A stretch of 60,634 nucleotides of DNA from an uncultured archaeon (GTDB taxonomy: Archaea > Asgardarchaeota > Lokiarchaeia > Sigyniarchaeales > SOKP01), in NCBI GenBank assembly GCA_964388035.1, contig CAYLZE010000018.1:1-60634 (forward strand), given 5' to 3'. A model generated the notes under the pieces. That model had not been told where the DNA came from. It worked only from the letters and a program-made list of their open reading frames with translations, and did not search any database. Both the position numbers and the translations under genes were made by a program. Positions 10,492-14,067 of this stretch are shown one piece after another. The stretch's first letter is position 1, and the number at the start of each line of letters is the position of its first letter.

Positions 10492-11022
10492 TTATTCCTT
10501 AGTGATTATCTCTAAGACCATCTTTATCAAATCTCTAAAAGCTGTCTCTACATTTTCCCCTGTTTTAGCCGAGGTCGTAGTTATCTTCATGCCGTACTTA
10601 TTAGCATATTCTCGAGCCTGGGATTCGGAAATTTTTATCTTTTCTTTCAAATCTGCTTTATTTCCAATAAGCGCTAAAGGCCATTTTTCTCCTTGAATCT
10701 CTTTAAAATCCTTGATCCAACCATCCACTTTCTCAAAAGAATTAGGATTCGTCATATCATATACGATTAACGCGCCATTTGCACCTTCTAAATATAATCT
10801 CCTCAACGATCTAAAAGAGTCTTGCCCTCCCAGGTCCCAAATCTGGACAGAAACCTCATTATTATCAATCTTTAAATCTTTTTTCATCAGGTTGACGCCT
10901 AATGTAGCTTTATAGCTATCTCTGAATTTATTTTCAATAAATCTATGAACTAAAGAGGTTTTACCTACATTTGCTTCCCCAAGGAGACAGCATTTCATGA
11001 TCCAATATTTTTCTTGTGCCAT
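10492..11022 (-). CDS. Rab-like small GTPase
   Basis: G1 GEANVGKTS, G2 YKATLGV, G3 WDLGGQ, G4 GNKAD, G5 TSAK. No C-terminal Cys. Confidence 0.95.
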   Translation of the reverse strand: MAQEKYWIMKCCLLGEANVGKTSLVHRFIENKFRDSYKATLGVNLMKKDLKIDNNEVSVQIWDLGGQDSFRSLRRLYLEGANGALIVYDMTNPNSFEKVDGWIKDFKEIQGEKWPLALIGNKADLKEKIKISESQAREYANKYGMKITTTSAKTGENVETAFRDLIKMVLEIITKE

Positions 11023-11368
11023 ATTTACTTTCTTTTCCGTATTATTAAAATAAATAATCGATGACCTAATTCATAGTGAACAAGGATAAATAATATATAA
11101 TAATTCATCATTATAAGAATATCCTATATATTAGGTCAAGTAAGATCGTTTGTATGGGATCTGAAGTTCTTCGTGAAACTGTGCTTTCACGACACGACCT
11201 ATTTGCCCACGTGATATGCCCGTCACGATACGAGATGATTTCGAATGGGTTTTAAAGGGATGGAACTGGCTAATTCCCTCCTATTTTAATGAGATTGACC
11301 ATTTTAAAGAAACACGAGTGCCCAAAAGGTTCATATTTCTTGATAAAATTTAAAGATGAGCTTCCTTT

Positions 11369-11932
11369 TCAATAAATATTTTGAATTGCGATACTAAGAA
11401 TGTCCTTCGTTAAGTCTAAAAAGGCCTCTTCAACTCCTTCTCCCGATTTAGCGCTGGTAATTATTAAATCCAACTTATTTTCTTCGGCATATTTTTTCGC
11501 AACCTCTTTTTGAACCGCGATTTTATCCGTTAAATCCGATTTATTACCAATTAAAATCAAGGGCTGGTCTCCTCTCATTTTCTTGAAATCATTTAGCCAT
11601 TCTTCTATATCTTCGAATGATTTTGGATTGGTCATATCAAAAATTAAAAGCCCCCCATTAGAACCTTCCAAGTATAATTTTCTTAACGATCGGAAGGATT
11701 GTTGGCCTCCTAAATCCCATATCTGTAAAGATATAAGTTTACCATCACATACAACGTCTTTTTTAAGAAGATTTACACCAAGTGTACTTTTGTAATCCGT
11801 TCTAAAACGGTTTTCAATAAATCTGTAGACCAGAGAGGTCTTTCCAACTGCTGGGTCTCCTAGAAGAACAAGCTTAAACTTCCAGGTTGCTTCTTGCTCA
11901 GTATCTGCCATAATTTGACAAAACACTCCCAT
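11369..11932 (-). CDS. Rab-like small GTPase (paralog of 10492-11022); start may be the second Met (MADTEQ)
   Basis: GDPAVGKTS, YKSTLGV, WDLGGQ, GNKSD and TSAK. Confidence 0.95.
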   Translation of the reverse strand: MGVFCQIMADTEQEATWKFKLVLLGDPAVGKTSLVYRFIENRFRTDYKSTLGVNLLKKDVVCDGKLISLQIWDLGGQQSFRSLRKLYLEGSNGGLLIFDMTNPKSFEDIEEWLNDFKKMRGDQPLILIGNKSDLTDKIAVQKEVAKKYAEENKLDLIITSAKSGEGVEEAFLDLTKDILSIAIQNIY

Positions 11933-12138
11933 TTTTTTATAATATGGACATTATATTAGTAAAAATCCTTATTTTTAAATACGTGCTATTTGACATTCAA
12001 GTTGCCTTCGCTTTCGATTGTTCGCGTAAGCGTCCATGATACTATTGATTATCATAATTATGGTAATTTACATTTTTAAATTCGGTTGATATATAAAATA
12101 GAGACTTTTTTCAAAATGTTCAATTCTTAAATTTTAGG

Positions 12139-12537
12139 TCAAGCATTAGAAAGAAACTTGAATAAGCGATACCCATACAAAAAGTCAATGAATAAGAAAA
12201 AAAAACCCACCAAAAAAAACCATGGATTCAATAACGTCAAGCTTAAACTTACAATAGTTATCCCAATCAATAATATCAGAAAATAATACCCATGTTTCGC
12301 CCAAAAGTGTAACTTTTTCGCAATCTTGCTAACATTTTTTTTTTCCTCTTCAGGCAAGGCACCAAAGCACTTGGTACAATAATTACCGCTTTTTCCTGCA
12401 ATGGTCATGCATCCATAACAATGCAATTTTTTACAAGAAGTACATGAGATCATTTCATGTTTGAAAAAATATCCTTCGCAGGTCGGACATTGAACCAGAT
12501 TTTGTCTTAAAATTTCATTTTTATCAATAAATGAGAT
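12139..12537 (-). CDS. Membrane-anchored 8-Cys zinc-finger protein (FYVE/rabphilin-effector-like spacing); probable ATC start
   Basis: Reading upstream of the track ATG (12453) in frame gives ISFIDKNEILRQNLVQ-CPTC-x11-CTSC-x4-CYGC-x10-CTKC. Two C-terminal hydrophobic helices follow. SD-like AAGTGA lies 6 nt before ATC 12537. Confidence 0.72.
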   Translation of the reverse strand: MSFIDKNEILRQNLVQCPTCEGYFFKHEMISCTSCKKLHCYGCMTIAGKSGNYCTKCFGALPEEEKKNVSKIAKKLHFWAKHGYYFLILLIGITIVSLSLTLLNPWFFLVGFFFLFIDFLYGYRLFKFLSNA

Positions 12538-12567
12538 CTTTCATCACTTAGTAAGAGTTTTTCTAAA

Positions 12568-13047
12568 TTAATCCGTTTGAAAGACAATCATGAATTCACA
12601 CGATTCCTCTCCCGTTTGAAGGCAACAATTTAATTCTTGCGCAAAGCAGTGGATCCCGCTCATTCTTTCAACTAATCCTGCCAATAATCCCGCTTCAAAC
12701 GAACAAAAATTATCCTCTGTTTTTATTTCTTTATCAATTAAATCCTTCACCGAGGAATGGCCCTTCATTCTTATTTGAATTATTTCATCCGTGCTATCCG
12801 TGATATTCACTTCCCCGATATGATACTCCGTGATCACCTTTTTCAACAAATCGGGAATTTCGGATGCATTTCGGGTTTCATGTGTATTTAAAAACGTGCC
12901 TAATTCGTGTCCTAAATAATAAAAAATAGCTTCCAATTGATGTCCTAAGGCTAAGAGTGCACTCACTTTCATGTCTCCGATCTCCCCTCCTTTCAAAAGC
13001 CGAGCTTTCATCTCTTTTAATATTTGAGACAATAATTGTCGATTCAT
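12568..13047 (-). CDS. V4R (4-vinyl reductase)/Bet3-like fold protein
   Basis: FYYLGHELG helix, FCSFEAGLLAGL and ELNCCLQTGEESCEF (V4R Zn ligands). Confidence 0.88.
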   Translation of the reverse strand: MNRQLLSQILKEMKARLLKGGEIGDMKVSALLALGHQLEAIFYYLGHELGTFLNTHETRNASEIPDLLKKVITEYHIGEVNITDSTDEIIQIRMKGHSSVKDLIDKEIKTEDNFCSFEAGLLAGLVERMSGIHCFAQELNCCLQTGEESCEFMIVFQTD

Positions 13048-13152
13048 GAAGATCTTGACCCATTCTTTTTTATTTATTTATTCCTATTTTAATATTTTAT
13101 TCCATTCCTATATAATTTGTTTTTTTTCTTAACACGTAATCGTGAATATTTT

Positions 13153-13440
13153 TCAAAATTCTATGGAGGAAATAAACGCATTTAAAATCGCGTCAATGAT
13201 TTCTTGTTCTTGAATGTTAACTGAAAGCTTTTCACCCCCTATGATTAAGGTAGGAAGGCTGGTTATTTTATATTTTTCCGTTAATTGCCGATTTGTCTCG
13301 ATGTCTACTTTCTGGATGTTTAATTTTTTCCCAAACATGGATACGTTAATATTATTCAAGATGATTTCAATCGGTTTGCATGGGGTGCAATGGGATGAGG
13401 TAAAGAATAAAATTACCGGATATCCTGGTTTTGACATCAT
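13153..13440 (-). CDS. Thioredoxin-fold protein (CxxC; KaiB-like features)
   Basis: FFTSSHCTPC and KVDIETNRQLTEKYKITSLPTL (cis-Pro motif). Confidence 0.85.
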   Translation of the reverse strand: MMSKPGYPVILFFTSSHCTPCKPIEIILNNINVSMFGKKLNIQKVDIETNRQLTEKYKITSLPTLIIGGEKLSVNIQEQEIIDAILNAFISSIEF

Positions 13441-13494
13441 TCTTTGCGTTCATTTCAACCTTTTAATGATTTAAATCATCCTGATTTTTCTTAT

Positions 13495-14067
13495 TTAAGT
13501 GTCCTTATATTTTTCATATAAATCTTTAATTATTGCTTGGAAACCTTCAAACACGCCAACACCGGTCTTTGCACTGGTGTGATAATATCCCAAAAACTTT
13601 CTTGCTTTGACCAGCGCTTTTATCTTCTTTTCATCGATCTTTTTTCCCTCCACTAAATCAATCTTATTCCCAAATAAAATAATGGGCAAATCTCCGCAAT
13701 ATTTTTTAATATCCTCGTGCCAATCTTTAATGTGCTCAAAACTTGCCTCCTCTCCCGGACTATGGGAAAATACAATGATTGCCGCTTTGCTACCCTTGTA
13801 GAAGGTAGGGCGCATGAACATAAATTCTGCCTGACCAGCTATATCCCAGAAGAAAAGCTTCACTTTATCTCCTTCGATTACCTCATCATATTTTGAGAAT
13901 TGTGCTCCCAATGTTTTGATGTAGTCTTTTTGAAAGCTGCCTTGGGTATACTTTTTGATTAAGCTGGTCTTGCCCACGGCCCCGTCTCCTATGACCGTTA
14001 TTTTAAACACGAAGCCTCGTTCATCATTATTAATACTCATTTTATCATCTTGTTTTTTTATATACAT
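13495..14067 (-). CDS. Rab-like small GTPase
   Basis: GDGAVGKTS, YIKTLGA, WDIAGQ, GNKID and TSAKTG. Confidence 0.95.
   Translation of the reverse strand: MYIKKQDDKMSINNDERGFVFKITVIGDGAVGKTSLIKKYTQGSFQKDYIKTLGAQFSKYDEVIEGDKVKLFFWDIAGQAEFMFMRPTFYKGSKAAIIVFSHSPGEEASFEHIKDWHEDIKKYCGDLPIILFGNKIDLVEGKKIDEKKIKALVKARKFLGYYHTSAKTGVGVFEGFQAIIKDLYEKYKDT

Follow-up and report, generated by a model that had tools for sequence, protein, structure and literature searches.

A conserved small GTPase-thioredoxin-V4R gene triad in one order of Lokiarchaeia

MsvR is a dimeric regulator in which the cysteines of a V4R domain switch DNA binding with the redox state (PMC3729527), and it is reduced by the thioredoxin system of Methanosarcina acetivorans (PMC7278568). 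Asgard genomes encode dozens of eukaryote-like small GTPases, almost none of which has been matched to a regulator or effector. Liu et al. described an Asgard operon of a LAMTOR1-like gene, a Rab-like GTPase and a DENN gene, which contains neither V4R nor thioredoxin, and reported that most such GTPase genes lie outside conserved neighbourhoods (bioRxiv 10.1101/2020.10.19.343400). According to Tran et al. (2024), the GTPase genes of Promethearchaeum syntrophicum MK-D1 are generally not found in operons with roadblock, longin or TRAPPC3 genes, and the layout of this genome does not permit GTPases to be matched to regulators (PMC10933270). V4R is mentioned 0 times in the survey of Wuichet and Sogaard-Andersen (2014), which covers MglA/MglB-type operons (PMC4316618). 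Here we analyse a stretch of 60,634 nucleotides (the window), contig C18 of a 5.47-Mb Lokiarchaeial assembly, in which genes for a small GTPase (GTP_A), a short thioredoxin (Trx) and a stand-alone V4R-fold protein (V4R1) lie side by side. No published description of this triad was found in the full-text literature, subscription journals not covered.

Conservation of the triad

The original prediction had placed six genes on the minus strand of the window between positions 10492 and 14067, and all six open reading frames (ORFs) were found exactly there, with gaps of 54, 105, 206 and 346 bp confirmed. The triad comprises the first three. GTP_A (13495-14067, 190 amino acids (aa)) encodes a Rab/Ran-like small GTPase and is followed by Trx (13153-13440, 95 aa), with an HCTPCK active site and a cis-proline, and by V4R1 (12568-13047, 159 aa).

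For the synteny sample, 12 kb were fetched around 40 V4R1 orthologues and the window proteins were mapped onto them. With the window and the locus of genome G006 this gave 41 loci; taking away G006 and a locus at a contig end (L036) left 39 intact triads for comparison. In 39 of the 40 fetched loci the three genes lie next to one another, the exceptions being L036, which is cut by its contig end, and G006, which holds a weak V4R-like match only and no triad. The triad loci were drawn from three families, f1 (that of the window), f2 and f3, with V4R identity as low as 40%. Median gaps in the orthologous loci are 31 bp between the GTPase and Trx and 56 bp between Trx and V4R1. The neighbours change around the 39 intact triads, where 15 gene families occur upstream and 8 downstream, and the trio is still together where its order is permuted to GTPase-V4R-Trx (f2) or its GTPase is inverted (genome G015). 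For all 38 neighbouring GTPase orthologues the best match in the window's genome is GTP_A. Family f3 includes P. syntrophicum MK-D1, Lokiarchaeum ossiferum B-35 and Harpocratesius repetitus. The two Lokiarchaeia in culture both carry the triad, namely MK-D1 (V4R orthologue DSAG12_02516) and L. ossiferum (NEF87_005024). Tran et al. (2024) studied two different V4R/TRAPPC3-fold proteins of MK-D1 (PMC10933270); the V4R1 orthologue of this strain, WP_147663616.1, is a third protein outside those two.

V4R1 has a single-copy orthologue in 141 of the 161 genomes surveyed in the class. Orthologues occur in 124 of 134 genomes of f1, in all 14 of f3 and in the single genome of f2, and the same survey found none in families f4 to f6. 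A phylum-wide profile scan yielded weak V4R matches only beyond these families, and a scan of 1.84 billion representatives recovered only about four full-length 50% clusters of V4R1.

The locus of L. ossiferum is contained in four metatranscriptomic RNA sequencing (RNA-seq) runs of one study. Assembled contigs bridge V4R1, Trx and GTP_A in all four runs, and an upstream GTPase of the type of GTP_B and GTP_C, the last two of the six genes (B/C-type), lies on a separate contig. For the co-transcription that the original prediction had proposed to look for, this gives supporting but not decisive evidence in a relative, and for the triad only. The contigs fit a polycistronic message for the triad. 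GTP_A, Trx and V4R1 share one strand, short gaps and a conserved order, and the bridging contigs fall short of proving a single transcript. Between the L. ossiferum contigs, low-coverage stretches lie upstream of both GTP_A and the neighbouring GTPase; seen in contigs of one study, they were not used to place transcript ends. The AT-rich intergenic region of 229 bp upstream of GTP_A (14068-14296, minus strand) is the presumed promoter region of the operon, a placement derived from the intergenic sequence and from the L. ossiferum contigs that bridge the three genes. A scan for bacterial promoters and terminators gave counts no better than those in shuffled sequence, and such a scan is ill-suited to archaea.

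All the above indicate that GTP_A, the CxxC thioredoxin and V4R1 form one conserved unit, probably an operon, throughout one Lokiarchaeial order. The proposed grouping of a GTPase, a V4R protein and a redox protein holds by synteny for these three genes and is kept within one order, whereas six co-oriented genes are not conserved, GTP_C being inverted in a sister species (L052).

The triad proteins and other V4R-GTPase pairs

The AlphaFold2 model of V4R1 (predicted local distance difference test score 92.5) has the V4R/Bet3 fold. Its structural Z scores are 14-14.8 to the phenol sensors PoxR and MopR, 14.0 to MJ1460 (root-mean-square deviation 2.5, 24% identity) and 12-13.4 to Bet3/TRAPPC3, Thorarchaeal proteins included; the template modelling (TM) scores against Bet3 are 0.60-0.66. 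The window copy reaches 25.6 bits with Pfam V4R (PF02830), below the cut-off of 31, and all 32 orthologues examined match both Pfam V4R (best E value 3.9e-9) and DUF2507. None of these 32 matches Pfam TRAPP_Bet3 (PF04051) at E<=0.01. The V4R1 profile matches the MJ1460 V4R structure at E 0.004, and among NCBIfam models the V4R half of MsvR matches best (NF053755, E 1.5e-9, model positions 117-236). V4R1 was rejected as a full MsvR, as it scores 37.9 bits against an equivalog cut-off of 220 and has no winged helix-turn-helix (wHTH) DNA-binding domain. As judged by sequence, V4R1 groups with the prokaryotic sensor V4R domains of MsvR and MJ1460, not with Bet3, and its closest relative is the V4R domain of MsvR. 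The link to TRAPP drawn by the original prediction is thus confirmed as a shared Bet3 fold; the sequence affinity lies with MsvR and MJ1460, and the TRAPP-like reading of V4R1 as an exchange factor for guanine nucleotides (GEF) has fold resemblance as its sole basis.

No triad protein other than V4R1 has several conserved cysteines. Every orthologue keeps C115, and at least 90% keep C134, C141 and C150. The spacing of 19/7/9 (26 from the first to the third) resembles that of C206/C225/C232/C240 in MaMsvR, and the Cys4 cluster may be a zinc site, predicted to tie the beta-sheet to a helix. With 159 aa and a single fold, V4R1 has no output domain. In f3 and in genus g2 an additional CxxC pair takes the place of the HSS of the window. 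Among the representatives, a 201-aa apparent fusion (P0040) was set aside, as it joins an unrelated N-terminus to the start of V4R1 and appears to be chimeric through misassembly.

Five V4R1 orthologues from two genera (L102-L106: G045, G148, G120, G132 and G145) contain stop-containing, in-frame mini-inserts of 30 or 39 nt, which share one codon position after A33, inside GALLA|LGHQLEA. The GTP_A orthologue of G039 (L057:5034-5603) has a 30-nt mini-insert inside its WDI|AGQ motif. These inserts fold into a hairpin with pairing of the flanking exons and resemble tRNA-type mini-introns, although by eye they are not a textbook bulge-helix-bulge. The host genes are otherwise intact and conserved, and the window copies of V4R1 and GTP_A are free of such inserts.

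All three GTPases of the locus belong to the Ras superfamily (PF00071), scoring 141, 169 and 173 bits (cut-off 21.6; E 3e-41 to 4e-51; Pfam Ras 3.3e-41 for GTP_A). The G1-G5 motifs of GTP_A are intact (GDGAVGKT, T52, WDIAGQ, NKIDL and TSAKTG) and are invariant, together with the catalytic glutamine, across 32 orthologues. Its nearest solved structures are Rab23, Rab21, Rab35, Ypt7 and Ran. Read against the RabF motifs IGVDF, KLQIW, RFRSIT, YYRGA and LVYDIT, GTP_A is a weak fit (LGAQF, KLFFW, FMFMRP, IIVFSH), and GTP_B and GTP_C come close (LGVNL, S[LV]QIW, SFRSLR, L[IL][IV][FY]DMT). As anticipated, none of the three has a C-terminal cysteine for prenylation; they end in ...EKYKDT, ...AIQNIY and ...EIITKE.

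The thioredoxin scores 41.4 bits with Pfam Thioredoxin (PF00085; cut-off 23.5) and matches TIGR01068 at 6.8e-12, missing its equivalog cut-off of 96.8, which fits the short archaeal form. KaiB (PF07689), the other label proposed for this protein, was dropped, as its 19.8 bits stay below the cut-off of 27. C18, C21 and P63 are invariant in 32-33 orthologues, every one of which keeps the CxPC motif, the following lysine and the cis-proline. The conserved CxxC points to the operon Trx being a redox enzyme.

The window's genome has three V4R genes, and V4R1 is not the only one beside a GTPase. V4R2 (198 aa; contig C118, L001:1664-3459) lies directly downstream of the gene for GTP341, a 341-aa GTPase whose GTPase domain is Arf/Sar-like (Pfam Arf 2.8e-31, Z 22 to Arf6). 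The N-terminal domain of GTP341 follows the order beta-beta-alpha-beta-beta-beta-alpha-alpha, which is that of the longin domain, and its putative longin assignment rests on this order of secondary structure. A structure search with the whole GTP341 model gave GTPase matches only. The best atlas look-alike of the N-terminus, at 0.83 (NPR2/longin cluster 0.80), was below the level at which it would be more than a lead. In each of the 29 relatives' loci examined GTP341 and V4R2 lie side by side, just as they do in the window's genome, and a 435-aa protein with a C-terminal zinc ribbon is often encoded upstream of the pair. V4R1 and V4R2 share about 35% identity over only 40 residues, and their partner GTPases come from different families. 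G006 represents another order of the class; there a Ras-like GTPase gene begins 30 bp after a V4R-like gene (171-203 aa; L049:4261-6570), and the same locus has a divergent 275-aa ORF with an N-terminus suggestive of a roadblock/longin domain. No GTPase neighbours the third V4R gene of the window's genome (contig C26, 10650-11135).

Chance explains these pairings poorly. The 5.47-Mb genome has about 75 Ras-family matches, so that a random locus has one within 1.3 kb in about 3.6% of cases, and for two of three V4R genes to lie this close to a GTPase the probability is about 0.004. V4R proteins are repeatedly wired to small GTPases in Lokiarchaeia. The GTPase genes themselves cluster genome-wide beyond random expectation, with 2 triples within 3.6 kb where 0.07 are expected, which fits tandem duplication, and the six-gene arrangement exceeds chance.

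Genes around the triad

The fourth gene, ZnTM (12139-12537, minus strand), encodes an N-terminal C-x2-C-x11-C-x2-C-x4-C-x2-C-x10-C-x2-C finger followed by two C-terminal hydrophobic helices that form a membrane hairpin. Its first ATG is at 12453, which leaves 114 bp to V4R1. The frame is open to 12540, and a start at the ATC at 12537 gives the 30-bp gap of the original prediction, which stands only with this start. The frame upstream of the ATG encodes an extra CxxC pair that is present in all six orthologues, and the Met of the L064 orthologue aligns with the ATC of the window; the longer reading and the 30-bp gap are therefore right. In three of seven genomes (the window, L065:5490-5894 and L055:6570-6980) ZnTM has no ATG, GTG or TTG before the first conserved CxxC, and an isoleucine codon, ATC in the window, occupies the site where other orthologues have Met or Val. 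Such a non-canonical start points to either initiation at AUH codons or gene decay.

ZnTM orthologues (E<1e-17) occur in 8 of the 161 genomes and are absent from about 95%. In all seven genomes that also have a V4R1 match, ZnTM lies directly downstream of V4R1. It is a lineage-restricted accessory gene of the operon, neither a chance neighbour nor part of the core, and the idea that the unit includes a membrane zinc finger is correct for these few genomes and fails for the rest.

ZnTM was expected to be FYVE-like. It resembles DZR and FYVE/rabphilin fingers in having eight cysteines in four CxxC pairs, and its spacing of 2-11-2-4-2-10-2 is compatible with both tandem zinc ribbons and cross-braced fingers. 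Unlike FYVE or DZR it has the C-terminal two-helix membrane hairpin, and the WxxD, R(R/K)HHCR and RVC motifs of FYVE (PF01363) are absent from the window protein and from six orthologues. ZnTM belongs to no Pfam or NCBIfam family and has no Pfam match to FYVE, FYVE_2 or DZR at E<=0.1, so the FYVE label was rejected. Its best atlas look-alikes (0.87; B-box 0.78, Zn-ribbon/DZR 0.77) were likewise below the level of more than a lead.

The last two genes on the minus strand encode the Ras-family small GTPase GTP_B (11369-11932, 187 aa, Pfam Ras 9e-50) and the Rab-like GTP_C (10492-11022, 176 aa, Pfam Ras 3.5e-51), the orthologue of the B/C-type GTPase often found near the triad. Their mutual identity is 58%, and with GTP_A they share about 35% (37% for GTP_B). 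For 28 loci, the neighbouring GTPase matches GTP_C best among the proteins of the window's genome. A B/C-type GTPase accompanies the triad in nearly all f1 loci, on either strand and sometimes kilobases away, and in five f3 loci it is upstream of GTP_A instead. GTP_C has the opposite orientation to the window's copy in L052, from the sister species within the same genus. This inversion and the variable position of the B/C-type gene make the co-orientation of six genes only local. GTP_B and GTP_C probably arose by recent duplication of a neighbouring GTPase that is transcribed separately and lies outside the fixed unit; the 206-bp gap upstream of GTP_B suggests a transcription unit of its own.

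Other genes recur near the triad. In f3 an 81-94-aa protein (L033:5541-5786, with homologues in 8 f3 loci) is encoded after V4R1 on the same strand. It resembles a stand-alone Lrp/AsnC-type (RAM) ligand-binding domain and is covered by some of the triad-bridging RNA contigs. The gene orf193 (window 7867-8448) has weak wHTH matches and apparently a longer N-terminus, as in L. ossiferum (L033:4819-5478). Together with a KTI12/PSTK-like kinase gene (6483-7322) it remains near the triad in both f1 and f3, and in f3 it is convergent with V4R1 or with the RAM gene after V4R1. Two 8-Cys mini-proteins are encoded upstream of the triad on the same strand (window 14297-14940), outside the conserved unit; among the 40 loci they are common only to the sister species of the same genus (L052).

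A candidate GTPase switch and its known relatives

We lean, with a little better than even confidence, towards the triad being a thiol- or ligand-gated small-GTPase switch with a sensing partner, to which ZnTM, GTP_B and GTP_C are looser additions. The redox side of this reading follows from the MsvR-type V4R domain, the thioredoxin of its own, the constant GTPase partner and the fact that V4R1 is the multi-cysteine protein of the triad. V4R1, probably as a dimer, would change state when its Cys4/Zn site is oxidized or when a ligand enters its cavity; the dedicated Trx would reset it, and its state would be passed to or read by GTP_A. V4R1 may serve as an exchange factor, a GTPase-activating protein, a holder similar to a guanine nucleotide dissociation inhibitor, or an effector. 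The membrane-anchored ZnTM, a fourth gene gained in a few genera, may bring the module to the membrane there.

Several observations weigh against such a switch. With all triad genomes in one order, shared descent accounts for part of the conservation, and the V4R2-GTP341 pair has no thioredoxin. The V4R1 of G011 (L043:3868-4347) has lost three of the four cysteines and that of G008 (L040:5998-6468) one, in each case beside a Trx that keeps its CxxC; a Cys4 switch therefore cannot be obligatory everywhere. Fusions of V4R1 with Trx or a GTPase were searched for among longer V4R1 proteins and none was found, which is weak evidence. The RNA evidence consists of contigs from one study and from a relative rather than from the window's genome. 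Complex prediction with V4R1, Trx and GTP_A as partner, from 32-row alignments, returned a score of 0.00 and no verdict, which is no evidence either way.

The GTPase could instead be merely co-expressed, for instance in answer to one shared condition, without direct coupling, beside a self-contained redox- or small-molecule-sensing pair of Trx and V4R1. MsvR offers a precedent for a V4R working with thioredoxin and no GTPase, V4R domains are generally ligand binders (PMC10933270), and the fourth gene in f3 encodes a stand-alone RAM-type ligand-binding domain. We nevertheless regard this as rather unlikely: GTP_A is the most conserved of the three and no trio lacks it, a GTPase but no thioredoxin also accompanies two other V4R genes, and V4R1 itself lacks an output domain.

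Less probable still is the reading first proposed, in which all six genes form one proto-Rab trafficking module, with V4R1 as a TRAPP/Bet3-like GEF, Trx as a redox switch and a FYVE-like membrane finger as receptor or effector for three Rab-like GTPases. The Rab-binding surface of TRAPP comes mainly from longin subunits, and no longin subunit is encoded in the triad operon. The layout of six genes already breaks down within the genus (L052), ZnTM is missing from all but 8 of 161 genomes and shows neither the FYVE signature motifs nor a Pfam FYVE match, and the V4R1 orthologues, none of which matches TRAPP_Bet3, all match V4R and MsvR-type models. What speaks for this module is the Bet3 fold of V4R1 (by Z and TM scores), the occurrence of ZnTM only directly after V4R1, the B/C-type GTPase usually within 1-2 kb of the triad, and the putative longin-Arf protein with V4R2 in the same genome, which would supply both TRAPP folds beside a GTPase. 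The repeated pairing of V4R genes with GTPases keeps a TRAPP-like reading alive as a minority hypothesis. In its stronger form, V4R1 would be a true exchange factor or a nucleotide-state-specific partner of GTP_A, gated by its own Trx, which we consider improbable. If this is true, and taken with the pair of longin-Arf and V4R2, Asgard archaea would have had both TRAPP-building folds connected to small GTPases before the origin of eukaryotes.

That the adjacency is inherited gene order without functional meaning, as might be suspected in a genome with about 75 Ras-family matches that cluster well beyond expectation and with all triad genomes in one order, is very improbable, given that the trio stays intact while its flanks turn over, survives permutation and inversion, has operon-like gaps and bridging RNA contigs, and that the chance of such V4R-GTPase proximity is so small.

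The gated GTPase switch remains the reading we prefer. The triad names two specific candidate partners for one GTPase, and its presence in both cultured Lokiarchaeia makes the pairing directly testable with purified proteins. For an Asgard GTPase switch, redox state may be one input, and it is a condition of importance to strictly anaerobic syntrophs. The triad is also relevant to the question of a link between the Bet3 fold and GTPases that predates TRAPP.

V4R1 resembles MsvR in its V4R domain and in conserved cysteines at matching spacing. It differs in that the winged-helix domain is absent, Trx is encoded in the same operon, and the co-encoded partner is a small GTPase, not DNA. With Bet3/TRAPPC3 and the Thorarchaeal TRAPPC3 (PDB 7yh2/7yh3), V4R1 shares the same alpha/beta fold; Thor-TRAPPC3 also has a Cys4 zinc site, and both are linked genetically or functionally to small GTPases (PMC10933270). 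Against this likeness stand the missing Pfam TRAPP_Bet3 match, the slightly higher Z scores to sensor V4R structures and an operon free of longin genes. As in the LAMTOR1/DENN operon, itself one of few such cases reported, a Rab-like GTPase is paired with candidate regulators in a conserved Asgard arrangement; that operon combines roadblock and DENN proteins in most Asgard archaea, whereas the triad combines thioredoxin and V4R in one Lokiarchaeial order. MglA/MglB-type operons likewise encode a Ras-superfamily GTPase beside its regulator (Wuichet and Sogaard-Andersen 2014, PMC4316618), although that regulator is a roadblock/longin protein, not V4R. The triad is a variation on two known kinds of system, the GTPase-regulator operon and V4R/thioredoxin redox sensing.

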